64,000 nt of DNA, from positions 2,912,001-2,976,000 of the forward strand of contig OZ242311.1 of NCBI GenBank assembly GCA_965207885.1, in the 5' to 3' direction. The number at the start of each line of letters is the position of its first letter. Positions within the stretch are counted from its first letter, which is position 1. Made by a program: the position numbers and the translations under genes. The notes under the pieces are model-generated. The model was not told the origin of the DNA. It was given only the letters and a program-made list of their open reading frames with translations, and did not search any database. This document shows, piece by piece, positions 2,563 through 47,361 of this stretch. The stretch comes from Candidatus Latescibacterota bacterium. Lineage in GTDB: Bacteria; Latescibacterota; UBA2968.

Positions 2563-2597
2563 AAAAAACATGCTCCTGAAAAATCTCTAAGGAATAC

Positions 2598-7647: not shown

Positions 7648-7759
7648 GCCACACCTCAAATCTTTCTGAGCAACCCGAATCCCTCTTTCTTGAAATGGTG
7701 GGCCACATGGACATTAGACTCTCTCTTGAGGTTTTCACAATACGACGGACCGTTTAACG

Positions 7760-8164
7760 ATGCCATCACATTACGTAAAAGCAGGCGTTGCCGGAGTGAT
7801 TCTCAGAGGCAACCAAATTGTAATGGTTCGCCGTAAATACGGGACACATAAAGGGAAGTGGTGTATCCCTTGCGGGAATGTTGAGGTTGGTGAGGACGTC
7901 CGAACTGCCGTGAGGCGCGAGATTAAAGAAGAGACTGGTCTGGATGTGGAAGTTGGTGACGTCGTGGACGTGCTCTCGACTCATCACTCGCCTGAGCGGA
8001 GTGTGGTAGGAGTATGGTTTCTCGTCAAAGAAAAGGGCGGTAATCTGGTCGCAGGGGACGATGCCGCTGAAGTCCAGCTATTCTCTCTTGAGGAGCCGCC
8101 AACAGATATGGCATTTGAGGCGGATAGGAAGATAATTGAGCGACTGAAAACCACGAGTTTGTGA
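7760..8164 (+). CDS. NUDIX hydrolase
   Basis: Nudix box GNVEVGEDVRTAVRREIKEETGL. Confidence 0.92.
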   Translation: MPSHYVKAGVAGVILRGNQIVMVRRKYGTHKGKWCIPCGNVEVGEDVRTAVRREIKEETGLDVEVGDVVDVLSTHHSPERSVVGVWFLVKEKGGNLVAGDDAAEVQLFSLEEPPTDMAFEADRKIIERLKTTSL

Positions 8165-8183
8165 AGGTCTCACGAGACCGAAG

Positions 8184-22349: not shown

Positions 22350-22410
22350 CGATCCTCGTGATAGACTAGGCGGTACCTTAAACCAAGCGGCGGAAAGGAT
22401 ATAAAGTGCC

Positions 22411-23061
22411 ATGCTGAAAGCCATTCTTTGGGACAACGACGGCGTCCTGGTCGACACCGAAGGCCTGTACTTTCAGGCTTGCCGCGAAACCTTGGAACGC
22501 CTCGGCGTCCGCCTGAGCGAAGCCCGTTTCATCGAGCTCTTCCTCAAGGCCAGCGAAGGCCTTACCAAGATCGCCGCCGAACACGGCATAGACGAACAGG
22601 CGCTGGAGCCAGCCCGCATCTGGCGCAACGCCCGCTACACCGAACTCTTGCGTGCCGGTGTACCCGTCATCGACGGCGCCCGCCAAGTGCTGCGCCAACT
22701 CCACGGCACGGTGCGCATGGGCATCGTCACCAGTTCGCGGCGGGAGCACTTTGAGATCATTCACGCCGCCACCGGCCTGCTGGACTGCATCGATTTCACG
22801 CTCGTGCGCGAAGACTACCGACATTCCAAGCCCGACCCCGAGCCTTACCTCACGGCCATGCGGCAAAACGGTCTTAGCGCCGCCGAATGCGTCGTTATCG
22901 AAGACTCGGACCGGGGGCTGCGCGCCGCACTGGCGGCCGGGCTGCGCTGCATCGTCATACCGCAGGGCCTGACGAGCGGCCTGGACTTCACCGGCGCCCT
23001 GCGGCAACTGACCGATATCCGTCAGGTCCCACCGCTGATCCATGAGCTTATGCAAACTTAG
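22411..23061 (+). CDS. HAD family phosphatase (GC-rich)
   Basis: WDNDGVLVDTE; KPDPEPY; IEDS. Confidence 0.92.
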   Translation: MLKAILWDNDGVLVDTEGLYFQACRETLERLGVRLSEARFIELFLKASEGLTKIAAEHGIDEQALEPARIWRNARYTELLRAGVPVIDGARQVLRQLHGTVRMGIVTSSRREHFEIIHAATGLLDCIDFTLVREDYRHSKPDPEPYLTAMRQNGLSAAECVVIEDSDRGLRAALAAGLRCIVIPQGLTSGLDFTGALRQLTDIRQVPPLIHELMQT

Positions 23062-23203
23062 TACTGTTTCAATTAAGTTTCTTGCATGCAATTCCACCCG
23101 TTACGGACGAAAAGCTTGAGGGTTAGAACTTGAAAATCAAAGGGGTGAAGGTTTCCCCTCTATGTTATTTTTTGCCAGGTCCCAAGTTTTGAAAGGAGCC
23201 TTC

Positions 23204-24288: not shown

Positions 24289-24735
24289 ATGTCTTCAGCC
24301 TCCGATACTCCGCGCGTGTACCTGGGTGCCTATGGGCTCTGTCGTGATCCGTCAGGTCGCCTTCTCTTGGTTCGCATGGCGAGTGGACCGGACGAAGGAA
24401 GATGGACGATTCCAGGTGGTGGTATTGAGTGGGGGGAGCATCCGGATGCTACGGTGCTTCGCGAGTTAGAAGAGGAGACAGGCATCGTGGACGTTGAGAC
24501 CTTTAGAGCCGCTGAGGTGTATTCACATACGTACACCAAAAGTGTGGAGCGTCCAGACGACTCGGTACACCATGTCGGCATCGTCTATAACGTGACTGTT
24601 GGTTTGCTCGATCTCAGGTTCGAACAAGATGGATCGACTGATCGTTGCGAGTGGTGTACCAAGAGTCAATCCCGGTCCTTGCCCCTCACTCCACTGGGGG
24701 CATTCGCAGTTGACTTGGCCTGGCCGAGACCTTAG
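24289..24735 (+). CDS. NUDIX hydrolase
   Basis: GGGIEWGEHPDATVLRELEEETG; followed by a left attC core ACACAACAAG at 24765. Confidence 0.92.
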   Translation: MSSASDTPRVYLGAYGLCRDPSGRLLLVRMASGPDEGRWTIPGGGIEWGEHPDATVLRELEEETGIVDVETFRAAEVYSHTYTKSVERPDDSVHHVGIVYNVTVGLLDLRFEQDGSTDRCEWCTKSQSRSLPLTPLGAFAVDLAWPRP

Positions 24736-24824: not shown

Positions 24825-24908
24825 TAGGAAGCGCCTCCTATGATCTCGAAATACATTGATAAACTCAGAGAAGGTGAATCTCTCCAGGCCGATGAGGCTA
24901 AACAATGA
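24825..24908 (+). pseudogene. 5' stub of a second trpD allele
   Basis: RBS region plus first 68 nt match 28425-28507, with 2 mismatches after the ATG. Confidence 0.9.
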
Positions 24909-24931
24909 AGAAAATCCTATAAGGATATACC

Positions 24932-25795
24932 ATGAATTTCACGATTGATCTTGAATATACTCCACGCAGTCCCCAAGATGGATTGCCCTTCACTGAGAAA
25001 ACATTCTGTCGGCGTAGTATCCCATTTACTTTTGACGTCAAAGAAGTAGGGATTGCTTTGGTTGATTTTTGGAATTTTGGCTGGGATGATGGCCCCTTTG
25101 ACGAAGAACTTGGTGACCGCAGTTTTGAACGGGGTCGCTCCCATGCAGAACGAAAACGCCAAATTATTGAGACAAAAGTCAGGCCATTAGTAAATATGCT
25201 TCGCGATATGGATTTCCAGATTTTTCACTGCAATCAAGCAGATTTTATGAAACGCTATCCTCAATGGAATCAGTCAACAACCGATGCAGAACGCCAGAGC
25301 CTATCTGCGGATCCTGCTTCTTCTGAAAATTTAAAAGAAGAACGAAACAGTCAATGGCCTCCTCAAGAGTGGGTGGACAGTTGGAAAAATCAGCATCGCG
25401 AATTGATTTGGCGAATGGAGGATTGGGCGAATATTCAGGGGAAACTCTATTACCAAATATCGATACCTGAACCCGTTGAACCCCAGGATGGCGATTTACT
25501 GGTTTATTCAGGAGACCAGTTTCATCGGCTGCTTGCCGAAAAGCGTATCAAGGTTCTGTTTTACATGGGCTTTGAGACCGATGAATGTTTGATGAATAAG
25601 CCTCATGGCATAAGAAATATGAGTCGCCTGGGTTATATGCCTATAGCTGTAACCGACTGTACAACAACATATGAAGCGGCTGAAACTTTGGATGGACTGT
25701 GGAAAACACGAGTTACAATTCTCAATATTGAAGCCCATCAGGGCTATTCAGTAACATCTGAAGCCCTTTTAAATTCTCTGAAAATTCTGAAATAA
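24932..25795 (+). CDS. Isochorismatase/cysteine hydrolase family protein
   Basis: IALVDFWN; LFYMGFETDEC; VTDCTT. Confidence 0.75.
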   Translation: MNFTIDLEYTPRSPQDGLPFTEKTFCRRSIPFTFDVKEVGIALVDFWNFGWDDGPFDEELGDRSFERGRSHAERKRQIIETKVRPLVNMLRDMDFQIFHCNQADFMKRYPQWNQSTTDAERQSLSADPASSENLKEERNSQWPPQEWVDSWKNQHRELIWRMEDWANIQGKLYYQISIPEPVEPQDGDLLVYSGDQFHRLLAEKRIKVLFYMGFETDECLMNKPHGIRNMSRLGYMPIAVTDCTTTYEAAETLDGLWKTRVTILNIEAHQGYSVTSEALLNSLKILK

Positions 25796-25861
25796 AAAAT
25801 CCTCAGGCTTGCGTCCTGTAAGCCCCAACCACTACCTCAGGGCCTAAAAAAATGCCGCCAC

Positions 25862-25957
25862 CGCACAAAAAGCAATATCCTGAATTGCTAACTTTCCTCA
25901 ATAGCTCGGCCGGAAAACCTAAACCCCATCCCATTTGTCTAAAACACATGAACCTTG
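25862..25957 (+). repeat. ~97-bp intergenic repeat, copy 1 (ECF promoter-like)
   Basis: Near-identical to 29545-29641; contains GGAAAACCT-N16-GTCTAA. Confidence 0.85.
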
Positions 25958-28349: not shown

Positions 28350-28439
28350 AATTGTCACACCTACATCGGCAATGGCAGCCGTTTCACACTCAAGGCAAGC
28401 TTCTGGATAAAAGGACTATCTGAATAGGAAGCACTACCT

Positions 28440-29456
28440 ATGATCTCGAAATACATTGATAAACTCAGAGAGGGTGAATCTCTCCAGGCCGATGAGGCTG
28501 AACAATGTCTGAGTGCAATCCTGGAAAGTAACCTGCCAGACGAACAGATCGCAAAACTGCTCATAGCGTTCTCTGGGAAGGGCGAAACTGCCGATGAAAT
28601 TCTCGGATTTTCGAGAGCTTTATTGACCAAAGCAAGACCTGTACCTCTCCCTTCCTCCGTCATTGATTCGTGTGGCACAGGTGGAAGCGGTTTAAATCGA
28701 TTCAACGTATCTACAACCGCTGCGTTCGTTTTATCTGCTGGTGGCGTTCCGGTGGTGAAACACGGCAATAAAGGATCAAAGCGACCGAATGGAAGCTTTG
28801 ATTTGCTGGAAGAACTCGACTGTGAGTTTGATTTCAGAGATGACCGTTTAGAGGACATTTTCAGGAGAACGAATGTATGTTTTCTGTTTGCCCGCATATA
28901 CCACCCAGTAATGAAAAAAGTGGTGACCGCCAGACAAATGGTTGACAAGAGGACGATTTTCAATCTCAGCGCTCCGTTATGTAATCCTGCCAATCCCCAA
29001 TATCAGATACTCGGAACAATTGATGTCGATATGGGCAGACAACTGGTAGAAGTGCTCCGCCATCTTGGGCGTAAACGCTTCTTGATTGTTGTCGGAGAGC
29101 CGGGGATTGATGAGATCTCCATTTCTGGACACACGCATATCTTTGAAGTGGCCGAAGGTGTGACCAGAGAATACCAGATTTCGCCTTCAGATTTTGGGAT
29201 AGCAAAATGGGATTACAGTGAGATTCCAGGTGGTGATAGTGACGAGAATGCAGAAATCTTCCTATCTCTTTTACAGCACCAAACTCCCGAACCAATTCTG
29301 GATCTGGTGTGTTTGAATGCCGGTGCAGCTTTCTACTGTTTTGGACGCACAGATTCGATTGAGGAAGGCTTTGATCTGAGCAAGGATCTCTTCGCAAAAG
29401 GGTTGGTTCAAGAGAAATTTCTTAAATATAAACGACTGTCCAGCAAGCAGAAGTGA
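28440..29456 (+). CDS. trpD: Anthranilate phosphoribosyltransferase (orphan copy)
   Basis: DSCGTGG; FNVST; KHGN; RTIFN; GIDEIS; LNAGAA. Confidence 0.9.
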   Translation: MISKYIDKLREGESLQADEAEQCLSAILESNLPDEQIAKLLIAFSGKGETADEILGFSRALLTKARPVPLPSSVIDSCGTGGSGLNRFNVSTTAAFVLSAGGVPVVKHGNKGSKRPNGSFDLLEELDCEFDFRDDRLEDIFRRTNVCFLFARIYHPVMKKVVTARQMVDKRTIFNLSAPLCNPANPQYQILGTIDVDMGRQLVEVLRHLGRKRFLIVVGEPGIDEISISGHTHIFEVAEGVTREYQISPSDFGIAKWDYSEIPGGDSDENAEIFLSLLQHQTPEPILDLVCLNAGAAFYCFGRTDSIEEGFDLSKDLFAKGLVQEKFLKYKRLSSKQK

Positions 29457-29544: not shown

Positions 29545-29641
29545 CGCACAAAAAGCAATATCCTCAATTGCTAACTTTTCCTCAATAGCCCGGTCGGAAA
29601 ACCTAAACCCCCTTCCATTTGTCTAAACCACATGAACCTTG
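29545..29641 (+). repeat. ~97-bp intergenic repeat, copy 2
   Basis: Matches 25862-25957; its left flank resembles 19287-19317. Confidence 0.85.
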
Positions 29642-29690: not shown

Positions 29691-31760
29691 GTGGAGAAAG
29701 CCAAACAGGTGCGGTGGTCATGCGCGATAATTTGGGTGCCAATTGTGCTGCTGACGCTACCGCTTTTCGCAGAAACGCAAAGCTCGACGCGTACTATCAG
29801 TGCCACATGGACGGATAATCCCCCCATTATTGATGGCGAACTTACAGACAGTGACTGGCAACGCGCCCAAATTGCAACCAATTTCTTTCGTGCAAAGGAA
29901 GGAAGCATCCATCCGGCGCAATTGAACACGGAAGTCAGGATTTTGTACGATGAGCATATGATCTATATCGGCGTGCGTTGCGATGAGCCGGACATGAAGA
30001 GTTTGCGCGAGACGAAAATTCGCCGGGATTCCGCCATCTGGCAGAATGACTGTATCGAAGTGATGCTTGATACCTATCGCGACCGTCGCAACTGCTACGT
30101 TTTTGGAATCAATACACTCGGCACACAGATGGACGAGCGGGTCAGTAATGAGAGTGTTTTCGACCTGAGTTGGGATGCAAAATGGAAATCGAAAATAAAA
30201 AAACACCGAAATCACTGGACCGCAGAATTTGCGATCCCGTTTCGCATGCTCCGTTTTAATCGACACAATACGACGTGGGGAATCAACTTTTGGCGGACAC
30301 ATCCGATAAATGGTCAATCCTATTCGTGGGCACGCACCGATTTTTTCGGGCGCGTATCGGAGTTTGGCGATTTGACCGGATTGGATTTCGGAAAGATCAA
30401 AACAGAGCAGAAGATCGGTATTCTCCCCTACGGGACCTATCGTGCAATAGAAAATCGTTCCAATGACCACGATGGTGGTTTAGACCTGATTCTCCCGATC
30501 TCGACGCACCTCACCTCGAATGTGACTTTCAATCCCGATTTTTCACAATTGGAAAGTGACCCGACGCAAATTAACATATCAAGTGACCGGGAATTGTCTC
30601 TCCCAGAACGCCGTCCATTCTTCCGGGAAGGTGCTGAACTGTTCAGGCTGCCGCTCAATTTATTCTATACCCGTCGCGTTCAAGAAATCGATTTTGGTGT
30701 AAAAACAGCAGGTAAAATTGGCGGTTCTAATTTCGCGGTCATCAATACTTACGGCAAAATGATCGATCGGTACGATGCGGATAAAAAAAAGCAGGCAAAT
30801 CTTTTGGCCGGGCGGGTTAATTACGATATCGGTGAGCGCACTGTCATCGGTGCAATGGGAATCCATAAACACCAGGCAGATCGAGATGTGGCACTCCTAT
30901 CGCTCAATGGTCGATTTGGACTTCATCGAGACTGGACTGTAACGTCGCAGTATGCTGTCGATTTCATCGATGGCGAAACGCATTGGGCGTATCACACCGA
31001 GATGGAATGGCTTCATGAAGGTTGGCTCACCGAAATCGCGTTTGAAGAGATTCAGGACGGTTTTCGTCCAAATGAGATGGGGCTTGAAGATGAGGCATTC
31101 CGTCGGGGCCGTGCTCGCGTGAGGTACAGACACGAGTTTCCAGAGGCGAATCTCTTGCAGTCATTTGGTGCTGATATGCGCCATTTTTATCAAACCAATG
31201 CACAAAAATTGCTGCGGGAACGGCGGAGTGAGTTCCGTTTTGATATTGATATTGGCCGATTTGATTTCTTTACCTATGGTGGGTTTGGCGCTCTTCGCGA
31301 AGTCGGTCAACTTTTCGATACCAGGTTTATCGGCTCATTGATTGATTACCAGGCACCGTGGTGGCACCTGGAGGTTTCAAATCGCTTTGGAATCCGTCGA
31401 GATGAATTCAACCGATTTACCAGCTTCTCTGCGGGTGTCAACCTCTTTGGCAAATTGACCGCTGATCTCGACCTGGATAATTTTTTTTGGCGTACACATC
31501 GAAATACGCTAATTTTCCGGCTCCGCAGTAACTATCAATTGACCCAAAAGATCGGCTGGCGCATTTTTTTTGAACGCGTAGATGAACGGTTGCAAGATGA
31601 GATCAGCTACAATTTCAACGCAATCTTCGACTACGAGTTCACCCCAGAGAGCCACTTCTATTTTGTGTTTGTTGATAGACTCCCAGGTGGACGAGCTGTG
31701 TTTACAAAGCTCGCGTATCTTTTTGAAGTCAGTTTCCCAGATTTTGGTCGATTTTATTGA
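29691..31760 (+). CDS. CBM9-like/DUF5916 outer-membrane protein
   Basis: PIIDGELTDSDW; WTAEFAIPF; NPDFSQLESD; ERRPFFREG. Confidence 0.82.
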   Translation: MEKAKQVRWSCAIIWVPIVLLTLPLFAETQSSTRTISATWTDNPPIIDGELTDSDWQRAQIATNFFRAKEGSIHPAQLNTEVRILYDEHMIYIGVRCDEPDMKSLRETKIRRDSAIWQNDCIEVMLDTYRDRRNCYVFGINTLGTQMDERVSNESVFDLSWDAKWKSKIKKHRNHWTAEFAIPFRMLRFNRHNTTWGINFWRTHPINGQSYSWARTDFFGRVSEFGDLTGLDFGKIKTEQKIGILPYGTYRAIENRSNDHDGGLDLILPISTHLTSNVTFNPDFSQLESDPTQINISSDRELSLPERRPFFREGAELFRLPLNLFYTRRVQEIDFGVKTAGKIGGSNFAVINTYGKMIDRYDADKKKQANLLAGRVNYDIGERTVIGAMGIHKHQADRDVALLSLNGRFGLHRDWTVTSQYAVDFIDGETHWAYHTEMEWLHEGWLTEIAFEEIQDGFRPNEMGLEDEAFRRGRARVRYRHEFPEANLLQSFGADMRHFYQTNAQKLLRERRSEFRFDIDIGRFDFFTYGGFGALREVGQLFDTRFIGSLIDYQAPWWHLEVSNRFGIRRDEFNRFTSFSAGVNLFGKLTADLDLDNFFWRTHRNTLIFRLRSNYQLTQKIGWRIFFERVDERLQDEISYNFNAIFDYEFTPESHFYFVFVDRLPGGRAVFTKLAYLFEVSFPDFGRFY

Positions 31761-31773
31761 GTGGAGATCCAGA

Positions 31774-32346
31774 ATGGATGATCATGCGTTTTCAGAGATT
31801 CGGGATATGCTGGATCTGGGTCGGTTTCCCCAGAGCCAGATTACGCTCTTGGATATATCGGAAAAGCTTCTGACGGAAGCAGCGAGACGGCTGGAAGAGA
31901 CCGGTGCCGAGTTCAGAACCGTTGTCGGGGATTTGTTCGCAGATGATGACGTACAACTTGAAGCCGATTCGTTCGATTGTGTGGTCTCATCGTATGCGCT
32001 GTGTCATGGCAGACTAGAATCGGAATACGAGGGTCTATACGCACGGATTCGCAATTGGATCAAGCCAGGCGGATGCTTTCTGTGTCTTGACCACGTTCAC
32101 GGCTCAAAAGCAGAACTGACCATGCTTGGATTCGAAGATTGGGCTGAGTTGCTTCGACGGAACTTTCCAGAAGATAGAGTTGAGCCGATCCTGAAGAACT
32201 CTTTGATAGAAGATTCTCCGTTGGATATTCCTCATCATCTCTCTCTGCTATCAAAAGTCGGGTTTGAGAGAGTTGATGTGCTTTGGAAGAAAGGTCTGTT
32301 CGCTCTCTACGGAGGCTTCGGAAAGGCGGAAGAAACCCGACACTGA
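31774..32346 (+). pseudogene. Class I SAM methyltransferase with motif I deleted
   Basis: LDLG runs directly into RFPQSQITLLDIS (GxG and following helix absent); FDCVVSSYAL; IKPGGCF. Confidence 0.6.
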
Positions 32347-32389
32347 TCTCCCCGTACTGTTTCTTATGAGATCCAAACCTGCCACAGGC

Positions 32390-32479
32390 ATATAACAGGT
32401 CCACTTGCGCTGTGGCGCATTTGCGCCATGGTCTTCAGCAATCCGCTTCGCAGGTTCGCAACCCGCGAGAACGTTACAC
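32390..32479 (+). repeat. attC-like site
   Basis: ATATAAC at 32390 and GTTACAC at 32473; TTGCG/CGCAA arms; inner TGGCGCA/TGCGCCA hairpin. Confidence 0.6.
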
Positions 32480-32514
32480 GCAAACCGGATTCGCATCTTA
32501 GGCTGGAAAGGGAA

Positions 32515-32877
32515 ATGATTAAGAGCTTACACCACGCACAGATTACGGTACCCAGGGGCGCTGAGGATGCTGCGAGGGAGTTCTATTGCGGCATTTTAGG
32601 GTTACCCGAAATCGAGAAGCCGGAATCGCTTAAGGCCCGAGGTGGATTGTGGTTGCAAGTCGGTGATCGCCAGGTTCACGTAGGAATCGAAGAGGGCGTG
32701 GATCGGCTGGCTACCAAGGCACACCTGGCCTACGAGGTGACAGACATCTCTTTTTGGAGGTCTCTGCTTGCTGAGGCGGGCGTCGAGATAGAAAAATCCA
32801 TCGCAATTTCCGGCATCGATCGCTTCGAATTTCGGGATCCTTTTGGGAATCGAGTTGAAATCCTCATGCAGACTTAA
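32515..32877 (+). CDS. VOC/glyoxalase family protein
   Basis: LHHAQITVP; FYCGILGL; DPFGNRVE. Confidence 0.9.
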   Translation: MIKSLHHAQITVPRGAEDAAREFYCGILGLPEIEKPESLKARGGLWLQVGDRQVHVGIEEGVDRLATKAHLAYEVTDISFWRSLLAEAGVEIEKSIAISGIDRFEFRDPFGNRVEILMQT

Positions 32878-32891
32878 GAAAGGATGGCAGA

Positions 32892-33004
32892 ATGTCTTCA
32901 GCCTCCGATACTCCGCGCGTGTACCTGGGTGCCTATGGATTCTGCCGTACCGCGTTCTGTTGGTGAGGTGGAGGCAACGCACAACAAGAAGCTCAAGTTC
33001 GTTC
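32892..33004 (+). pseudogene. Collapsed copy of the 24289 NUDIX gene (head + downstream flank + left attC arm)
   Basis: 32892-32948 matches 24289-24345; 32950-32990 matches 24736-24776. Confidence 0.9.
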
Positions 33005-33129
33005 AGTATACTTGAGCATAGAGAAAATTTCGCTGGAAATGACCGGTATCGGAAGCTATATTGTTACGAGAGTAGCCAAACCGAAGTCGATTCGAACCGT
33101 ACATATTATTCTGGAAAATTTGACTCCAG

Positions 33130-33237
33130 ATGAAGAATTGGCCTGAATTCGATCATAATGGTGATTTACCAGTAGGGATTCATGAGGCAACACTGGATGA
33201 GGTGATCAACGATGATTCAGAACGATCAGGAACTTGA
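33130..33237 (+). pseudogene. Internally deleted DUF6932-like gene
   Basis: MKNWPEFDHNGDLPVGIHEATLDEVI joined to a short tail that overlaps the next gene. Confidence 0.55.
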
Positions 33238-33421
33238 GGCGACCAAGGAACGCATCCAATATTTTCAGCGACAAGTAGAAAAGCTTCGACAGGTCGAAAC
33301 CAATCCACAGAACTATTGGTTATCGGCAGGAGGCTATCTGGCCGAAATAGATCGGATGAATCTCGAGGTGAGAGAGTATCTTTCGCTTCATCCAAGTGAA
33401 CAAAGAGAGCGGGTTACCTGA
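33212..33421 (+). CDS. Small hypothetical protein (possible partner of the DUF6932-like gene)
   Basis: MIQNDQELEATKERI... 69 aa; GAGGTG upstream. Confidence 0.7.
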   Translation: MIQNDQELEATKERIQYFQRQVEKLRQVETNPQNYWLSAGGYLAEIDRMNLEVREYLSLHPSEQRERVT

Positions 33422-33451
33422 GTTTATCATAGAACATGTTTTGTGATATAG

Positions 33452-33487
33452 ATCCCCGTTCAGTAGGTTCTGACGGGGATTTTCTTT
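33452..33487 (+). terminator. Rho-independent terminator
   Basis: ATCCCCGT(T)CAG...CTGACGGGGAT followed by TTTCTTT. Confidence 0.7.
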
Positions 33488-33532
33488 ACCAAACACACCG
33501 TTGTTGCGCTGCGTCGCCCTACGCCCAAAAAC

Positions 33533-33722
33533 AAGGACATCCCATGAATTTCACGGTTGATCTTGAATATACTACATGCAGCCCCCAAGATGGATTGCCG
33601 TTTACAGAGGAGACATTCTGTCGGCGTAGTATCCCATTTACCTTTTAAAATCTGTGAAAATTCTTAAATAAAAAGCCCCTAAGCTTGCGTCATCCCGACT
33701 CCAACCACTACTCCAGAGACTA
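33533..33722 (+). pseudogene. Collapsed allele of the 24932 isochorismatase gene (head + tail + downstream flank)
   Basis: First 34 codons match at 92/102 nt, then the sequence jumps at CCTTT to the last codons and the 3' flank of 25765-25846. Confidence 0.9.
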
Positions 33723-34659
33723 GGTAGTGTCTGAAAAGTAAGCTTTGAAGAGTTGTCTGATACAGGCCAGCTTGACCATAGTGAGAAAATGAGTCGCCTT
33801 TTTTTCAAATCGGGTCACAATCCGTCGGCAGTGTTTAAGCCAACCAAAGAGACGCTCCACGATATTGCGTTTGGCATATAATCTTTTATCACACTTAGGC
33901 CGTGGTCCTCTCTTACGCCGTTTTCTGCCTTTGGGAATCGCCTTGTTTGGGATAGCAGCCTTGATACCCCGTTTGCGTAGATAGACTCTGATGCGTGAGA
34001 CATCATAAGATTTATCAGCTACCAGATACTTGGGTCGGTTTCTTGGACGCCCTCGTTTGGTGGGTATGCATACCTTTGACAGTAGCCTTTCAGCCTGTGT
34101 GGATTCTGACTGGTTACCAGGGAGAAGATCCACTGCTAAAGGATGCCCGACTGCATCGCAAAGAAGATGGATTTTCGTGGTCAAACCGCCACGAGAGCGT
34201 CCTAAAGCGTGATCTGGGGGCTCTTCTTCACCCTTTTTGCCCTTTTTTTTTCGCTCCTGCCGCGGCTTGTGTGGCTCGAATATGGGTTGCATCCATCATC
34301 CAGGTCGCATAATCTAAAAGACCATCTTCACCCAATTTGAGATGTAGCTTTTCTACAATGCGATCAAAGGTGCCATCCTGTTTCCATTTGCAGAATCGGT
34401 CAAAGGCTGTCTGCCAAGGACCATATCGTTCTGGCAGGTCGCGCCAAGCTGCACCTGAACACAATATCCAGAAGATCCCGTTGAATAATGTACGATCATC
34501 CCGACGGGGACGACCCATCTTCTTCGGCGGTGGGAACAGGTCTTGGATCAGATGCCAAGCCTCGTCGCGCAGTTCATATCTCCGTTGCATATCATACTCC
34601 TTGGTTTAGGGCGTATGCTGCAACTAAAATACATACTTTACGACTTTTCAGACACTACC
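33723..34659 (-). mobile_element. IS5-family element (IS427-like, two ORFs, -1 frameshift), copy 1
   Basis: 937 bp; 17-bp IRs GGTAGTGTCTGAAAAGT; TA on both sides; orfA 34228-34590, orfB ends at 33720. Confidence 0.93.
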
Positions 34660-34661
34660 TA

Positions 34662-34930
34662 GGAAACTCGCGATCGAGTTTTTTCTGCGTTTCTCTGCAC
34701 CATTGGTGGTCAGTTTCTCTTAACGGTCCCTCAATGAAGGAATATAAATCAAGATCGGAAACGCCTTGAATGGCTTCATTTCTGTGAACACTGCCCCATA
34801 CGTAGATCGAAATGAGTCTCTCTGCAAAGTATGCCTGATACTCCAATACATGACGCTGAATAAGCTGCACAAAATATTGGTCGTCAAATAGATGTAAATT
34901 TCTGTATTTATCTGAGGTGTTCGATTTCAT
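34662..34930 (-). pseudogene. Nucleotidyltransferase-domain gene truncated by the IS
   Basis: IYVWGSVHRNEAIQGVSDLDL (GS...DxD); runs into the IS end. Confidence 0.75.
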
Positions 34931-35086
34931 AAAGTAGCTGCCTTTAGATAGAATGGATGAAACAAATTTAGATTACAAATATGTGTAAATCAAGTTTTCA
35001 ATAGGGATGAGGGAACGCCAGATCAGAGATATATATCTAATAATTCAGAACCGCAGATTATAAACGATCCATCGGATAGATGAAAA

Positions 35087-36652
35087 ATGGCCAGATACAC
35101 ACATAAATCGCCTGCTTCTATTGACCGAAGGGATTTTATTCACCTGGCCGGTCTTGGCGCAATGGGTGCGCTTGTCCTGGGGCTGGATGCTCCTGTTGGC
35201 GCACAAAAACAACCTAATTTTATCTTTATGGTTTCTGACGATCAGGGGTGGGACGGCCTTTCAGTGCAGATGCACGATGCGATTTCCGGTTCAAAGAGCG
35301 ATTTTTATCAGACGCCCAATCTCGAGAAGCTCGCACAGCAGGGCATGCGTTTTTCGGCTGCTTATTCGCCTTCGCCTGTCTGTTCGCCAACGCGATGCAG
35401 CCTTCAAACGGGTAAGAGTCCGGCAAAGAACCACTGGACAAAGGCATCCCCTATTCTGACCGTCAGAGATGGCCGTAAACTCATCCCACCAATGCATGGC
35501 AGAGATCTTTCCAGTGATGAAATAACCATTGCTGAGATGTTGAAACAGGCCGGTTATACCACAGCACATTATGGCAAATGGCATCTCGGTGGCGGTGGAC
35601 CAGGACGTCACGGGTATGACGTACACGATGGGAATACGGGTAACAGGGATGCAGCTCGTCATGTCGATCCCAATCCTGTAGATATCTTCGGCATGTCCCG
35701 GCGTGCGAATGCGTTTATGGAGGAGAATACAGAAGCTGGCAAGCCGTTCTTTATTCAGTTGTCTTATTATGCCCTGCACTATCCCCGGAATGCGCTGGAA
35801 AGCACGCGGCAAGCATACTTAAATCGGCCGAGAGGGGACGTCCATCGAAATGTCAATCGCGCGGCGATTACTGAAGACCTGGATACGGGTGTGGGTATGA
35901 TCATGGATCAAGTTGAGAAACTCGGCATAGGTGGTCATACGTATCTGATTTACATGTCTGATAATGGTGCTGTGGGAGGCGGTCTGGGTGTGTTGCGCGG
36001 GTCGAAGGGGTCTTTGTGGGAGGGTGGTATTCGCGTGCCATTGATTATCCAGGGACCTGGTATAGAGCCAAATACAGTTTGTCACGAACGCGTGGTCGGC
36101 GTTGATTTGTTTCCCACGCTTTGCGAACTGGGCGGTGTGAGCCAGCCGTTGCCAGTGGGTATTGAGGGGGGGAGTATCGCATCGTTATTATCTGGTGGGG
36201 CGGGTGCCGTTGTGAGACCTCGTGAGGAATTGGTCTTTCATTTTCCGCATTATCAAAGCGGAGATGGACCGCATTCGGCAATCATGTTGGACGATTACAA
36301 GCTGATCAAGTTTTACGAGACCGATGACGTGCGATTGTACGATTTGGTCAATGATATTGGAGAACAAAATGATTTGTCCAAAGATATGGGGGAAGAGGCG
36401 ATGCACCTGCGCGAACGGCTCGAACAGTATCTGGTATCTGTTGACGCTCAGTTGCCCGTGCCGAATCCCAATTATGGACCAGGCAAATCAAGTGATTTTA
36501 ATGGCGATGGACAAATTGATTTTGTGGATTTTCTCGAATTTGCCAGAGCTTATGGGTCGGAGGAGACTCGGTTTGATCTGGACAATAGCGGACAGGTAGA
36601 TTTTGCCGATTTTTTGAGGTTTGTACAGGATTTTGGAAGCACCGGGAATTAA
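35087..36652 (+). CDS. Tat-exported sulfatase with C-terminal dockerin-like/EF-hand tag
   Basis: DRRDFI; CSPTR; GKWHLG; DFNGDGQIDFVDFLEF..DLDNSGQVDFADF. Confidence 0.92.
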   Translation: MARYTHKSPASIDRRDFIHLAGLGAMGALVLGLDAPVGAQKQPNFIFMVSDDQGWDGLSVQMHDAISGSKSDFYQTPNLEKLAQQGMRFSAAYSPSPVCSPTRCSLQTGKSPAKNHWTKASPILTVRDGRKLIPPMHGRDLSSDEITIAEMLKQAGYTTAHYGKWHLGGGGPGRHGYDVHDGNTGNRDAARHVDPNPVDIFGMSRRANAFMEENTEAGKPFFIQLSYYALHYPRNALESTRQAYLNRPRGDVHRNVNRAAITEDLDTGVGMIMDQVEKLGIGGHTYLIYMSDNGAVGGGLGVLRGSKGSLWEGGIRVPLIIQGPGIEPNTVCHERVVGVDLFPTLCELGGVSQPLPVGIEGGSIASLLSGGAGAVVRPREELVFHFPHYQSGDGPHSAIMLDDYKLIKFYETDDVRLYDLVNDIGEQNDLSKDMGEEAMHLRERLEQYLVSVDAQLPVPNPNYGPGKSSDFNGDGQIDFVDFLEFARAYGSEETRFDLDNSGQVDFADFLRFVQDFGSTGN

Positions 36653-36684: not shown

Positions 36685-37905
36685 ATGAAGATTGTCGGGT
36701 TTGCGCTTGTCGCGTGCTTGTTGTGCGCTTTGGAAACGAATGCCTACGGTGCGGATTCCTTATCCGTCGAGGCGGGCTATGGTCGGATTGTGCTTCCGGG
36801 TACACAGGTGGATCTCAATGCCTCGATTACCAATGGTTCGGGCGCCCGTGTTGTGTGGCGGCAAGTGCAAGGGACGTCGGCGGCGATCAGTTCACCCAAT
36901 GCGCTCCAGACGACTGTTAGCGTTCCTGTCAATTTCAACCAGGCGGAGACATTGCTATTTGAAGTGCGTGCCGAGATGAATTCGGGTCAACAAGCATCGG
37001 ATACGGTTTGGATCGAGGTGTACGTACCTGAACAGAATCCCGCCGACCTGACGCTTGTGGCAGATTTTTCGCCGAAAGTTGGCTGGGAGTGCAATCAGGA
37101 CCCCGTAGAGGTTCCAGAGGTTCAGACCCGCGTTTTGGAAGATGCCATCGAGTACACGTCCAACGGCATTCCCGCCCATGCGACGGGAATATTTCCCAAT
37201 CGGGGAAATCCGAACATGATTTGGTCGGTAACGCAAACCTGGCGCATTCCCCGCTATCCCGTAAAGACAGATTCGCCCACCGAAATGGTTGTATTTGGCA
37301 TTACGCTTGAGGGCATAAAGCTCGAACCCGGCACTGCGGAGAGTTATCGCAACCAGCGGCAGTGGCGTTACGAGGCACTGACCCCGGGTATGGCGCGTCG
37401 ATTGAGCGGCACTGCGCGGTTCGAATGGCTGGGTACAGATTGCAATAACGCGCACGTTCAGCCGACGGGTGTTTACCACTATCACGGCGTGCCGCATAGC
37501 TTGATAAATGAACTCGCCGGTGGGATGGACAGTGAGGAGATGGTATTGGTCGGATATGCTGCCGACGGTTTTCCGGTCTATGTCGCCAGCGGACCCAATG
37601 CTCCTGAGGGGAGTTGGGAATTGCGCTCGGGTACGCGAGAAAGTGGACCAGGTGGAGAATATGACGGTACGTTTCGGGAAGATTGGCAATTTGTCGAGGG
37701 ATCGGGCGACCTCGACCAGTGCAATGGGCGATTCGGGATTACGCCCGAGTTTCCGGAAGGGATCTACCATTATTATTTGACCGAGGATTACCCGTACATA
37801 CCCCGCTGTGTATGGGGAACGCCAGATCCTTCGTTCCGGCAACACCGAGATGGTGGACCGCCCGGCGGTCGGCGTTTTAGAAGGCCCCCACCGCGGCGTC
37901 GTTGA
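36685..37905 (+). CDS. Secreted YHYH-domain protein with Ig/PKD-like domain
   Basis: Signal peptide; HVQPTGVYHYHG; GYAADGFP; GDLDQCNG; YHYY. Confidence 0.88.
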   Translation: MKIVGFALVACLLCALETNAYGADSLSVEAGYGRIVLPGTQVDLNASITNGSGARVVWRQVQGTSAAISSPNALQTTVSVPVNFNQAETLLFEVRAEMNSGQQASDTVWIEVYVPEQNPADLTLVADFSPKVGWECNQDPVEVPEVQTRVLEDAIEYTSNGIPAHATGIFPNRGNPNMIWSVTQTWRIPRYPVKTDSPTEMVVFGITLEGIKLEPGTAESYRNQRQWRYEALTPGMARRLSGTARFEWLGTDCNNAHVQPTGVYHYHGVPHSLINELAGGMDSEEMVLVGYAADGFPVYVASGPNAPEGSWELRSGTRESGPGGEYDGTFREDWQFVEGSGDLDQCNGRFGITPEFPEGIYHYYLTEDYPYIPRCVWGTPDPSFRQHRDGGPPGGRRFRRPPPRRR

Positions 37906-37939
37906 AACGATAGGGGATGAAGATTATAATAAGAGGCTA

Positions 37940-39343
37940 ATGATGAGGCGACAATTGAGGATGTTCGGATTGGTTTTTTGCCTGATGAGTGTGTTGTGTA
38001 CCAGTTATGCAGAAGGGCACATGCTCTACAGCGATGAGAGTGATGTGACGGATTTCAATGGCGACGGAAAAACGGACTTCGATGATTTTATTTTGTTCGT
38101 GGCCGCATTTGGTTCACAACAGGTGCCGTTCGATCTAAATGGGAATGGCCTGGTAGATTTTCCCGATTTTCTGATATTTGCCGCCCAATTTGTTCAAACG
38201 TCTCCGAACGAAACGCCAGATACCTTATCCGTCGAGGCGGGCTATGGTCGGATTGTTCTTCCGGGTACACAGGTGCAACTCAACGCCACGCTTAATGGTC
38301 CGGGTGCCCAGATTGCGTGGCGACAAGTGGGCGGCATAGTGGCGGAGATTCGTTCGGCAAACGCGCTCCAGCCGATCATTAGCATTCCCGTTATGATCAA
38401 CCAGCCGGAAACCTTGCTATTTGAAGTGCGTGCCGAAAAGGATTCGGGGCAACAAGCATCGGATATCGTTTGGGTCGAGGCGTACGTGCCGCAACAGGAT
38501 GTCACAGATTTGACGCTTGTGGCAGATTTTTCGCCGAAAGTTGGCTGGGAGTGCGACCAGGATCCCGTCGCGGTTCCAGAGGTTCGGACCCGCGTTCTGG
38601 AAAACACCATCGAGTACACGACGAATGGCATTCCCGCCCATGCAACGGGAATGTTTCCCAATCGGGGTAATCCAAATACGATAGCTCAAGTGACGCAAAC
38701 CTGGAGGATTCCCCGCTATCCGGAAAAGACGAATACGCCTACTGAAATGGCTACATTTGGCATCACGCTGGACGGCATCAAACTCGAGCGCGATACCGCC
38801 GAGAGTTATCGCAATCAGCGGCAGTGGAGTTACGAGGCGCTGACCCCGGGTATGGCGCGGCGGTTAAGCGGCAATGCGCGGTTTGAATGGCTGGGGACAG
38901 ATTGCAATAACGCGCACGTTCAGCCGACGGGCATTTACCACTACCACGGCGTACCGCACGGACTGGTCAATGAACTCGCCAGTGAGGCTGGGAGCCAGGA
39001 TATGATATTGGTCGGATATGCTGCCGATGGTTTTCCGTTCTATGTCGCCCTCGGACCCGATGCGCCCGAGGGTAGTTGGGTATTGCGCCAGGGTACGCGA
39101 GAAAGCGCGCCGGGAGGGGCTTATGACGGCACGTTTCGGGAAGATTGGCAATATGTCGGATCGGGCGACCTGGATCAGTGCAATGGTCGGTTCGGGGTGA
39201 CGCCCGAGTTTCCGGAAGGGATCTACCATTATTATTTGACCGAGGATTACCCGTACATACCCCGATGTGTTTGGGGGACGCCTGATTCTTCGTTTCGGCG
39301 ACGTCGGGCTGGTGGCCCACCTCCTGGTGGTCCAGGAGGTTGA
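37940..39343 (+). CDS. Secreted YHYH-domain protein with N-terminal dockerin-like tag
   Basis: Paralog of the 36685 gene plus DFNGDGKTDFDDF..DLNGNGLVDFPDF. Confidence 0.88.
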   Translation: MMRRQLRMFGLVFCLMSVLCTSYAEGHMLYSDESDVTDFNGDGKTDFDDFILFVAAFGSQQVPFDLNGNGLVDFPDFLIFAAQFVQTSPNETPDTLSVEAGYGRIVLPGTQVQLNATLNGPGAQIAWRQVGGIVAEIRSANALQPIISIPVMINQPETLLFEVRAEKDSGQQASDIVWVEAYVPQQDVTDLTLVADFSPKVGWECDQDPVAVPEVRTRVLENTIEYTTNGIPAHATGMFPNRGNPNTIAQVTQTWRIPRYPEKTNTPTEMATFGITLDGIKLERDTAESYRNQRQWSYEALTPGMARRLSGNARFEWLGTDCNNAHVQPTGIYHYHGVPHGLVNELASEAGSQDMILVGYAADGFPFYVALGPDAPEGSWVLRQGTRESAPGGAYDGTFREDWQYVGSGDLDQCNGRFGVTPEFPEGIYHYYLTEDYPYIPRCVWGTPDSSFRRRRAGGPPPGGPGG

Positions 39344-41843: not shown

Positions 41844-43268
41844 ATGAAGCGTAGAGAGTTTCTCGGTGTCGTCGGTGCTGGTGTCTGTGGGGTGGCGGTG
41901 GCCAATGCGTTTGGTCAAATTACGTCTAAGCGTTCCAAACAACCCAATTTTATTTTTATGGTTTCTGACGATCAGGGGTGGGATGGCCTTTCGGTGCAGA
42001 TGCACGATGCAGTTGCTGGCTCAAAGAGCGACTTTTATCAGACGCCTAATCTCGAGAAATTGGCACAACAGGGCATGCGTTTTTCGGCTGCTTATTCGCC
42101 TGCACCCGTCTGTGCGCCAACGCGATGCAGCCTTCAAACGGGCAAGAGTCCGGCAAAGAACCACTGGACAACGGTAGCCCCTCTCCAGGGTGCCGCGGAG
42201 AACCATAAACTCGTCCCGCCGATACATGGCAGAAATCTTGCCAAGGGTGAGACGACGATTGCCGAAATGTTGAAACAGGCTGGTTATGCCACGGCACATT
42301 ATGGCAAATGGCATCTCGGTGGTGGTGGTCCTGGAAATCACGGGTATGACGTACACGATGGAAATACGGGGAATCAGGATGCGGCGCCTCATGTCGATCC
42401 CAATCCGGTGGATATTTTCGGTATGTCCAGACGTGCGAATGCGCTTATGGAAGAGAATACGAAAGCCGGTAAGCCGTTCTTTATTCAGCTATCTTATTAT
42501 GCCCTGCACTATCCTCAGAATGCACTGGCAAGTACGCGGCAGGCATATGAAAATCGACTGAGAGGGCGCAGCTATCGAGAGATCAACCGTGCAGCCATTA
42601 CTGAAGATCTCGACACAGGTGTGGGTATGGTCATGGATCAAGTTGAGAAACTCGGCATAGGTGATCACACGTATCTGATTTACATGTCGGATAATGGTGC
42701 TGGCGGAAGAGGTCGGGGTATGTTGCGCGGTGGAAAAGGGTCTTTGTGGGAGGGAGGCATTCGCGTGCCGTTGATCATTCAGGGACCTGGTATAGAGCCA
42801 AATACGTTTTGTGATGAACGCGTGGTCGGTTTTGATCTATTTCCCACGCTTTGCGAACTGGGAGGCGTGAGCCCGCCGTTGCCAGTGGGTATTGAGGGGG
42901 GGAGTATCACATCGTTATTATCTGGTGGCGAGGGTGTGGTGGAGAGACCTCGTGAGGAGCTTGTGTTTCATTTTCCGCATTATCAAAGTGGGGATGGCCC
43001 ACATTCGGCAATCATGTTGGGCGATTACAAGCTGATCAAACTTTATGAGACCGATAAATTGCACCTGTTTGATCTGAGTAAGGATATAGGTGAGGAGAAT
43101 GACTTAGCAGATCGTAAACCAGAAGTTGTTGAGAAATTGCACGACCGACTGAATGAATATTTAGTATCTGTTGATGCCCAAATGCCCCAGCCCAATCCGT
43201 ATTACGATCCGAGTTGGCCGGTCGGCGGGCGAAGGGGGAGAAATAATCGGAGGAGAAGAACGCAGTAG
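41844..43268 (+). CDS. Tat-exported sulfatase (paralog of the 35087 gene, Arg-rich tail)
   Basis: KRREFL; CAPTR; GKWHLG. Confidence 0.92.
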   Translation: MKRREFLGVVGAGVCGVAVANAFGQITSKRSKQPNFIFMVSDDQGWDGLSVQMHDAVAGSKSDFYQTPNLEKLAQQGMRFSAAYSPAPVCAPTRCSLQTGKSPAKNHWTTVAPLQGAAENHKLVPPIHGRNLAKGETTIAEMLKQAGYATAHYGKWHLGGGGPGNHGYDVHDGNTGNQDAAPHVDPNPVDIFGMSRRANALMEENTKAGKPFFIQLSYYALHYPQNALASTRQAYENRLRGRSYREINRAAITEDLDTGVGMVMDQVEKLGIGDHTYLIYMSDNGAGGRGRGMLRGGKGSLWEGGIRVPLIIQGPGIEPNTFCDERVVGFDLFPTLCELGGVSPPLPVGIEGGSITSLLSGGEGVVERPREELVFHFPHYQSGDGPHSAIMLGDYKLIKLYETDKLHLFDLSKDIGEENDLADRKPEVVEKLHDRLNEYLVSVDAQMPQPNPYYDPSWPVGGRRGRNNRRRRTQ

Positions 43269-44702: not shown

Positions 44703-46421
44703 ATGAAAAAAATATCATCCATCCCAATTTACACCATCGGTTACGGTAGCCGTTCCATTGAGCAATTCATCGAAGTACTACAACAACATGAAATTGCCTA
44801 CCTTATTGATGTGCGCTCAACTCCCTATTCTCGCTATAAACCCGAATTTTCCAAAGAGGCACTGGAGGTGAAGCTGCAACAGCACCAGATTCGGTATGTG
44901 TTCATGGGGGACACGTTGGGCGGGCATCCCGATGACGAAACTTGTTATGATGCGAAAGGGCAGGTGGATTACGAAAAGGTAAAGGAGATCGAAGTCTATC
45001 AGATGGGAATTGAACGTCTCCAAACAGCCTTTGCTCAACAACAATGTATTGCTCTCATGTGTAGCGAGGGAAAACCGGAACACTGCCATCGAAGCAAACT
45101 CATCGGAGCATCGCTCACGGCTCAGGATCTCCCCGTGATTCATATTGACGAAAACGACGAGCAGCAGACGCAGGATGACGTTATTGAGCGTCTGACAAAA
45201 GGACAAATGCTTCTGTCAGCCCAAGAGGTGCTCAAAGACGTTTTTGGGTATGAACAGTTCCGACCTTTGCAGGAGACAATAATCAGCCACATTCTCAACC
45301 GGCACGATGCGCTGATCGTTCTGCCAACGGGGGGTGGGAAGTCACTCTGCTATCAACTGCCCGCCCTTATCTTCAATGGCGTAACGGTTGTCGTATCTCC
45401 GTTGATTTCGCTTATGCAAGACCAGGTAATGCAGTTGCAACAGCGGGATGTTTGCGCCGCTTTTCTCAACAGTACCCTTAGCCAGCGAGAATATGTTGCC
45501 ACAATGCAGCGTGTCAAAAGGGGTGAAATTAAGCTACTTTACGTTGCGCCTGAAACGCTCCTGCGACCTGAGATTTTGTTGATGCTCGATGAGTCACATG
45601 TAGCCTGCCTTGCAATTGATGAAGCACACTGTATTTCACAGTGGGGCCACGATTTTCGTCCAGAGTATCGACAACTGGTTTCCGTTCGTGAACGATTCAG
45701 GAACGCTGTCTGCGTCGCGCTGACAGCTACTGCCACGCCACGGGTTCAGCAGGACATTAAACAATTGCTCAAAATTCAGGTGGAAAATGAATTCATTGCC
45801 AGTTTTGACCGGAAAAATCTCTTCATGGGTATTGAATTGAAAGAGGCGGTGCTACAGCAGACGCTTGCATTTCTCAATACCCATCGTGATGAATCCGGTA
45901 TCATCTATTGCCAGACGAAGAAACAAGTTGAATCGCTGTTTCGCAATTTAATTGAACGTGGGATTCCGGCACTTCCTTATCATGCAGACCTGGATAGCGA
46001 AACCCGCAAGCAGAATCAGGAAGCTTTCATCAACGGGGACATTCAGGTGATAGTTGCAACAATTGCTTTTGGAATGGGGATTGATAAAGAAGATGTACGT
46101 TTCATACTACATATAGGATTGCCAAAGGAACCTGAGTCTTACTATCAGGAGATTGGACGTGCTGGCCGAGATGGACATCAAGCGGATTGCCTTTTACTGT
46201 TCAATCACGGCGACGTTGACACCATCAAATATTTCATAGATCAAGGTGCGCCATCTGAACGAGAAGGAGCTTTGAAACGATTACAGACGCTTGTTGATTG
46301 GGCGACTTCTGCAGCGTGTCGCCGCAAAGGATTATTGGCTTATTTCGGAGATCATTACGAAGAACAAAATTGTGGAATGTGTGATAACTGTCGCCAGGCG
46401 GAAATGGAGCGAGTTGACCTA
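44703..46421 (+). pseudogene. recQ: DUF488-RecQ helicase fusion, truncated by the IS
   Basis: YTIGY..DVRS..CSE..CHR; PTGGGKSLCYQ; DEAHCISQWGHDFRP; QEIGRAGRDG; CGMCDNC, then the IS. Confidence 0.85.
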
Positions 46422-47358
46422 GGTAGTGTCTGAAAAGTCGTAAAGTATGTATTTTAGTTGCAGCATACGCCCTAAACCAAGGAGTATGATATGCAACGGA
46501 GATATGAACTGCGCGACGAGGCTTGGCATCTGATCCAAGACCTGTTCCCACCGCCGAAGAAGATGGGTCGTCCCCGTCGGGATGATCGTACATTATTCAA
46601 CGGGATCTTCTGGATATTGTGTTCAGGTGCAGCTTGGCGCGACCTGCCAGAACGATATGGTCCTTGGCAGACAGCCTTTGACCGATTCTGCAAATGGAAA
46701 CAGGATGGCACCTTTGATCGCATTGTAGAAAAGCTACATCTCAAATTGGGTGAAGATGGTCTTTTAGATTATGCGACCTGGATGATGGATGCAACCCATA
46801 TTCGAGCCACACAAGCCGCGGCAGGAGCGAAAAAAAAAGGGCAAAAAGGGTGAAGAAGAGCCCCCAGATCACGCTTTAGGACGCTCTCGTGGCGGTTTGA
46901 CCACGAAAATCCATCTTCTTTGCGATGCAGTCGGGCATCCTTTAGCAGTGGATCTTCTCCCTGGTAACCAGTCAGAATCCACACAGGCTGAAAGGCTACT
47001 GTCAAAGGTATGCATACCCACCAAACGAGGGCGTCCAAGAAACCGACCCAAGTATCTGGTAGCTGATAAATCTTATGATGTCTCACGCATCAGAGTCTAT
47101 CTACGCAAACGGGGTATCAAGGCTGCTATCCCAAACAAGGCGATTCCCAAAGGCAGAAAACGGCGTAAGAGAGGACCACGGCCTAAGTGTGATAAAAGAT
47201 TATATGCCAAACGCAATATCGTGGAGCGTCTCTTTGGTTGGCTTAAACACTGCCGACGGATTGTGACCCGATTTGAAAAAAAGGCGACTCATTTTCTCAC
47301 TATGGTCAAGCTGGCCTGTATCAGACAACTCTTCAAAGCTTACTTTTCAGACACTACC
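46422..47358 (+). mobile_element. IS5-family element, copy 2 (inverted relative to copy 1)
   Basis: 937 bp; same IRs and same protein sequences; A9G slippery site at 46830-46839. Confidence 0.93.
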
Positions 47359-47361
47359 TAA

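Follow-up and report, generated by a model that had tools for sequence, protein, structure and literature searches.

Positions 33533-33722 of the window analysed here, a 64,000-nt stretch of the genome of an uncultured, sponge-associated Candidatus Latescibacterota bacterium (G000), hold the beginning of an isochorismatase-family gene fused directly to its end; in an alignment to the intact copy of this gene at 24932-25795, the interior is absent. The locus raises the question of whether such a joined pair of gene ends is the residue of a lost gene or a structure with a use of its own, for example as a site through which genes could be regained or exchanged. We conclude that the feature is very probably a non-functional pseudogene remnant of a second isochorismatase-family hydrolase gene, and that it is decaying. 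The remnant, here called the stub, has four parts:

33533-33640, + strand: head stub, holding the RBS, the start codon (ATG, 33544) and 97 nt of coding sequence from the beginning of the lost gene.
33641-33645, + strand: CCTTT junction, a microhomology at which the alignment blocks meet, with ~736 bp deleted.
33642-33671, + strand: tail stub, the last 9 codons and the stop in the original frame, out of frame with the head.
33672-33722, + strand: 3' flank travelling with the gene, cut short by an IS element at 33721.

The head stub matched positions 24921-25028 of the intact gene with 97/108 identities, and the tail with its 3' flank (33641-33722) matched 25765-25846 in two blocks (43/51 and 18/22 identities) separated by a 7-nt gap. 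When the whole 6.23-Mb genome was searched, only the matches of the head (E = 8.3e-37) and of the tail (E = 9.1e-11) were significant. No further copies of the gene were found in this genome, the five remaining matches all having E > 1, and a search at the protein level added just three distant paralogues (25-31% identity) to the intact copy and the stub. The sequence-only reading of this DNA had described a scar that keeps the head and the tail of a gene, and that observation is real: the homology, the junction and the counts all reproduce. Its figure of 92 identities over 102 coding nucleotides of the head, with 10 differences of which six fall at third positions and five are silent, is exact. 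The join at CCTTT is where it had been placed, with 736 nt between the two CCTTT sites in intact-copy coordinates against the "about 730 bp" first given, and the colinearity claimed for about 50 bp beyond the tail runs for 51 nt to 33722. The reading had also begun the feature at 33533, which holds as the start of homology and fails as the start of the coding sequence, since the start codon lies at 33544.

The CCTTT pentamer on the tail side is present in the resident gene at 24932. On the head side, the join reads ACT TTT in the resident copy and ACC TTT in G008, G003 and G039; the G007 sequence is also without CCTTT at this point. Because ACC TTT occurs at the head side in three genomes, a parent gene with CCTTT at both sites is realistic. 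The repeat fits either side of the join, and the coding head can accordingly be assigned as 97 to 102 nt. The deletion shifts the reading frame into an immediate TAA, leaving a remnant ORF of 34 codons (33544-33648). In the old frame the tail, for which the nucleotide alignment took in six alleles, translates as LLKSVKILK followed by a stop at 33669-33671. The 3' flank is colinear over its 51 nt with 25796-25846 and also with the 3' flanks of the gene in G008, G036, G039 and the metagenome locus L089. With its colinear ends, short repeat and functional parent, the feature is, as far as alignment can tell, a gene remnant produced by internal deletion between short direct repeats.

We examined whether the stub could be derived from the resident copy. 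The two heads differ by 6.0 silent differences over 21.5 silent sites and by 4.0 replacement differences over 80.5 replacement sites, a silent excess that is significant by the Fisher (p = 0.006) and binomial (p = 0.008) tests, on 102 nt only. Among the six intact alleles compared as DNA, dN/dS was 0.13-0.22. Seven of the ten head differences are states that occur in other alleles in the DNA alignment, and two further differences, encoding T11 and C12, occur in full-length protein alleles; this protein comparison covered the 19 members listed for the two closest protein clusters. T11 and C12 had looked like candidate decay mutations, P11 and R12 being invariant in five alleles, and their presence in full-length alleles rules this out. 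The full-length protein P0074 (287 aa), which is 94% identical to the resident copy, carries both T11 and C12 and matches the codons of the stub at 34 of 34 positions, and related alleles carry S11 with C12 (P0001 and P0076) or C12 (P0087). The LLKSVKILK of the stub tail is the exact C-terminus of another full-length protein, P0080. P0074 thus has the head of the stub and the tail of the resident copy, and this mosaic indicates that alleles of the isochorismatase-like gene recombine. The scar had been proposed to come from a functional allele distinct from the 24932 copy, a proposal that the silent excess, the 34/34 match and the P0080 tail all favor; the full-length gene closer to the scar than to the resident copy, which was to be looked for in metagenomes, exists at the protein level in P0074. 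Judged from these comparisons, the parent of the stub is a functional allele different from the resident copy.

Where this allele came from is a separate matter. Coding identity over the head was 94/102 with G007, 93/102 with both G008 and G003, and 92/102 with the resident copy, making G007 barely closer over 102 nt only. A metagenome scan for alleles yielded the single locus L089 (88% amino acid identity), whose head matches at 90/102 positions and is no closer than the other alleles. In a scan of genome contigs, only G008, G036 and G039 were close, and the other 18 loci were 48-54% identical. The two G000 copies differ by about 10% in the head, slightly above the 4-7% by which array genes differ from species to species. 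These values are compatible with an old second copy as well as with import by recombination, and 102 nt are too few to decide for an origin in another lineage's array.

The resident copy and its surroundings comprise the following features:

24825-24907, + strand: TrpD-like head stub, directly upstream of the intact gene, a copy of 28425-28507 (gene 28440-29456).
24921-25846, + strand: intact resident isochorismatase-like gene (ORF 24932-25795, 287 aa), with RBS and 3' flank.
25862-25957, + strand: TrpD-like 3' flank copy, 96 nt, a copy of 29545-29641.

The resident protein shares 94% amino acid identity with the copies in G003 and G008. Against Pfam PF00857 it scores 24.0 bits over residues 192-255 only, where the cut-off is 27 bits. 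Many homologues at 48-65% identity carry PF00857, the family of isochorismatase-like and nicotinamidase-related amidases, and are named isochorismatase family or nicotinamidase-related amidase in their source databases. Compared with this family, the stub keeps residues 1-34 and the last 9 residues and none of the matched domain at 192-255. The TrpD-like segments belong to repeat families D8, D11 and D13 (94%, 92% and 97% identity), the head stub being 83 nt, and they bracket the resident gene in both G000 and G008. By its flanks, the intact 24932 copy is the one that stands in a derived context. This bracketed arrangement would be equally explained by two ordinary deletions or replacements.

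The stub, by comparison, lies beside sequence that accompanies the gene elsewhere. Its upstream neighborhood is made up of:

32876-33003, + strand: companion stub of the NUDIX gene at 24289-24735, with 390 nt missing.
33008-33486, + strand: small-ORF module between the two stubs, with an ORF at 33212-33421 (69 aa, no Pfam match).
33489-33532, + strand: the isochorismatase-like gene's native 5' flank, which separates its RBS from the small-ORF module.

From 33480 on, the region is colinear with G007 at 93.6% identity over 173 nt, including the head, and from about 33515-33518 the 5' flank is partly common to G003, G036 and G039. This flank is absent from the resident 24932 copy and from G008, where the TrpD-like head is found instead. 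Because the 5' flank is common to these four genomes and is not that of the resident copy, the stub keeps its native flank. The neighbors of the gene differ from place to place: NUDIX and phosphotransferase genes in G000 and G008, a sulfotransferase-phosphoesterase gene and another NUDIX gene in G003, a HAD gene and an unknown gene in G036 and G039, and DUF4437 and peptidoglycan-binding genes on the L089 metagenome contig. Any part of the gene is present in 6 of the 53 genomes of the order, and no intact gene was found behind the small-ORF module in those 53 genomes.

Only G007, a sister species within the same genus, has the same slot, and there the truncation is different. Its slot reads, in order, methyltransferase, glyoxalase, a 15-nt IS-end remnant, a 252-nt piece from the 3' end of NUDIX, the small-ORF module and a 295-nt isochorismatase-like head, which is fused in frame to an SDR gene at a short microhomology. 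The fusion (locus L058, contig C160, about 1650-2830, minus strand) joins the first 97 codons to the SDR gene in an open frame of 425 aa, and the 15-nt IS-end remnant marks the NUDIX truncation. No intact copy was found elsewhere in the G007 genome, which is 95% complete. Since different deletions affect the same two genes in the same slot in G000 and G007, their common ancestor had longer copies there, and these ancestral copies were probably intact, to judge from the two surviving structures.

We also followed the slot in metagenomes. Four runs (X1, X4, X5 and X7) were compared over 32400-33760 as contigs rather than reads, and the statements below hold among the contigs shown; coverage gaps in single runs were not counted as evidence. 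The runs that hold this stretch are sponge and marine metagenomes. The junction is bridged with 0 mismatches in contigs from two other studies, by X1 record 6 (33543-33722) and X7 record 25 (33607-33722). Contigs of X5 and X7 that are otherwise identical to the window are without 33052-33606, a loss of 555 bp that takes most of the head, and further breakpoints within the head lie at 33586 (X1) and 33608 (X4). In X1 and X5, a native-type 3' flank continues past 33722 in place of the IS element. No intact gene was found in the slot among the contigs shown for the four runs. A low-depth contig, X7 record 29, carries the small-ORF flank and a head with P11 and R12 and ends exactly at 33641, and could be either the stub or an intact form. 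The slot shows independent, progressive deletions only. The same gene has been inactivated repeatedly elsewhere: P0084, P0002 and P0089 are frameshifted, and in P0079 an internal deletion joins residues to about 110 out of frame to nt 743-820.

The 3' edge of the stub is abutted by a mobile element:

33721-34661, - strand: IS4/IS5-type IS element, 941 bp, with ORFs at 34228-34590 and 33720-34292.

The element carries Pfam DUF4096 and DDE_Tnp_1 domains and ends in GGTAGTGTCTGAAAAGT and ACTTTTCAGACACTACC. It had 22 further matches in the genome, 11 of which are listed and are 99.8-100% identical. With a DDE transposase, terminal inverted repeats and multiple identical copies, it is an IS4/IS5-type element; a further copy lies within the window at 46419-47361. 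In G007 and G006, the DNA found to the right of the IS is preceded by a different sequence than in G000. In G000, the natural left neighbor of this right flank adjoins an inverted IS copy at a distance of about 502 kb. The IS beside the stub thus lies on a rearrangement junction, one consistent with a putative inversion of about 502 kb between inverted copies. Because the two flanks of the IS do not belong together, the downstream neighbors of the stub were presumably removed by recombination between IS copies. The original downstream neighbor was not recovered at the partner copy (G000 about 3447000-3448024), beyond which come a repeat-protein gene and a further, intervening IS copy.

The stub stands at the end of an array of about 30 kb in which every gene between about 4400 and 33700 reads on the + strand, and which continues upstream of the window. 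By Pfam, the array encodes phosphotransferases, GNAT acetyltransferases, NUDIX and HAD hydrolases, FAD oxidoreductases, a deaminase, a sulfatase, PhyH and GH4 enzymes, a subtilase, aldo-keto and short-chain reductases, Ham1, a TrpD-like transferase, a CBM9 protein, a methyltransferase and a glyoxalase. The order of blocks differs in each of the 10 genus genomes compared, and blocks tend to start near an RBS and to end past a short 3' flank. The NUDIX companion stub consists of a 73-nt head (32876-32948), one base, and 54 nt of post-stop flank (32950-33003), which fall into repeat families D10 (90%) and D12 (87%). In X4 and X5 contigs, 390 letters stand between the halves of this stub, in a third context. 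The small-ORF module is whole, at 86-90% identity, in G019, G012, G004, G020 and G015, parts of it are found at 91-96% in G006, G020, G017 and G008, and, whole or partial, it recurs at several places with 84-97% identity in no fewer than 10 genus genomes. A hairpin (CCCCGT..ACGGGG) followed by a T-rich run closes the module at about 33453-33490; it was seen by eye and was not listed by the simple terminator scan; a 35-codon ORF lies upstream of its 69-aa ORF.

Other repeats were seen in and around the window. The first NUDIX gene of the window (7760-8164; region 7658-8183) matches, at 96.6% identity, a copy lying 2-3 kb ahead of the window start (G000 2908723-2909770), with about 520 nt inserted between the matching parts. 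Tandem YHYH/PKD-domain paralogues at 36685-39343 contain DNA segments of 80-91% identity at a spacing of about 1462 nt, and the sulfatase paralogues at 35087-36652 and 41844-43268 are 86% identical over 300 nt.

The array genes are also shared beyond the genus. The purC gene of G000 is 93% identical to that of G007, G008 and G003, and no DNA match to it was found in G036 or G039, which belong to another family. The isochorismatase-like gene is nevertheless 88% identical to the G036 and G039 copies, and the HAD gene at 22388-23072 is 90-91% identical in DNA to theirs. Identity of 88-91% with another family despite the missing purC match indicates that array genes cross between families, and points to recent transfer of the HAD and isochorismatase-like genes between what would be co-occurring lineages.

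Four other readings of the locus were weighed. There is hardly any chance that the stub is an assembly artefact in which two gene ends collapsed in a metagenome-assembled genome. The assembly does come from a metagenome, another copy of the gene stands at a distance of 8.6 kb and the stub borders on an IS repeat, but contigs from independent runs, generated in two other studies, span the join with 0 mismatches, and the 10 differences from the resident copy over 102 coding positions mean that the stub is not a collapsed read-through of that copy. Retention for a function is very unlikely, be it a role in cis, with the 5' region or the 3' flank driving or ending transcription, or a 34-residue peptide. 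Such a role could explain why the RBS, the ATG and the open 34-codon frame are intact, why alleles of two families share a conserved 3' flank and why the stub is unchanged in two other runs. However, the variant without 33052-33606 occurs in two runs, and no array gene follows the stub, where only the IS element is found. A simple scan for promoters and terminators over 33490-33722 gave none above shuffled controls, and a structured RNA was rejected because no Rfam family matched in 31000-35200.

The sequence-only reading had gone further and suggested that scars keeping both ends of a gene act as landing pads, that is, as homology arms by which a gene is regained or swapped without an integrase, using the DNA of related arrays. 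The data do not support this idea, which we consider very improbable. Recombination through arms of 113 and 82 nt with a matching allele is physically possible, and allelic recombination evidently happens, given P0074 with the stub's head and P0080 with its tail. The high identity of two array genes across families in which purC has no DNA match, the resident copy lying between a TrpD-like head and 3' flank in G000 and G008, which is the geometry that a stub-guided swap would leave, and X7 record 29, which could belong to an intact copy in this slot, can all be read in its favor. Yet no intact gene was found at the slot in the order or in the contigs of the four runs, and only erosion was seen; the alternation between scar and intact states that the idea predicts was found neither in the 53 genomes nor in the contigs shown, with X7 record 29 ambiguous. 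The deletions of G000 and G007 differ, and the 555-bp loss in the population removes most of the head arm. This loss in X5 and X7, together with the breakpoints at 33586 and 33608, also shows no better preservation of the stub than of neutral DNA. Stubs in relatives, as we read them, include at least nine with a tail only, against two with a head only and two with both ends. Exact runs shared with the resident copy reach no more than 29 nt (head) and 10 nt (tail), adjacent intact genes would give far longer arms, and a double crossover in the TrpD-like arms needs a donor that is already so arranged. Moreover, removing a dispensable gene without harming its tightly packed neighbors must leave stubs, and they therefore need no special explanation. 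The broader form of the idea, in which one-directional arrays are integrase-free cassette arrays whose gene-sized blocks are exchanged among co-resident strains and families, with stub ends anchoring homology-facilitated recombination, is only a little less doubtful.

The reading of the stub as a decaying pseudogene remnant suggests the following course of events. A second gene, once intact and under selection, would have stood behind the small-ORF module at the end of the array. One deletion event, spanning about 736 bp from one CCTTT pentamer to the other and caused by replication slippage or illegitimate recombination, may then have removed its catalytic body, leaving a head of 97 to 102 coding nt, a tail of 30 nt and the 5' and 3' flanks that belonged to the gene. 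The adjacent upstream NUDIX gene would have been lost likewise. A young IS element may later have landed at the 3' edge of the stub, with recombination between IS copies moving the downstream DNA, and the stub would now be eroding neutrally.

Pseudogene remnants formed by deletion between short direct repeats, through microhomology-mediated events or replication slippage, are known in bacterial accessory genes. Like them, the stub has one 5-nt repeat at its junction, colinear ends, a broken frame and other lesions elsewhere. It shows no essential difference from them; here the full-length match can be named and the erosion can be traced in metagenomes. Integron gene-cassette arrays, which include attC-site arrays without an integrase, resemble the present array in lining up numerous small and unrelated accessory genes on one strand, in an order that changes from relative to relative; here these are GNAT, NUDIX, glyoxalase, isochorismatase-like and phosphotransferase genes. 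Unlike them, the array here has no repeated site family between its genes, and its block boundaries vary by genome. A Pfam scan of 57 window ORFs detected neither an integrase nor a recombinase family. The spacers are short, from overlaps to about 30 nt; 12 of the 33 listed are overlaps or at most 28 nt, too short for attC. No attC-like site repeated between genes was found among 14 direct-repeat families. An integron or attC reading was rejected on these three grounds. A candidate recombination-site motif in 3' flanks, CCGCNAAATCGCGCA, was also rejected: it occurs twice in the array and has 23 genome matches at one mismatch or fewer, the contexts printed for them being without common flanking sequence.

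Arrays of orphan modules and displaced ends in T6SS effector-immunity, Rhs and CDI systems form by homologous and homology-facilitated illegitimate recombination, according to the portions of Kirchberger et al. (2017, PMC5361080) drawn on here. As those portions describe them, such arrays resemble the present one in being integrase-free and mosaic among relatives, with leftover gene ends marking past replacements. They reuse one conserved 5' anchor gene, behind which displaced 3' ends pile up, whereas the stubs here come from unrelated enzyme genes with no common anchor. Here, both ends of the gene are kept through internal deletion rather than displacement, and compared with the systems in those portions, no toxin-immunity logic is visible.

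If stubs did guide exchange, which these data do not demonstrate, the array would represent gene-cassette turnover without a dedicated recombinase. By itself, the stub is an ordinary remnant in decay, and its value lies in being a well-resolved case: its parent allele is identifiable, its junction is legible, an independent truncation occupies the slot in a sister species, and metagenomes record the next step of erosion. The wider array is of greater interest, as its content is reshuffled within the genus and some of its genes share 88-91% DNA identity with another family.
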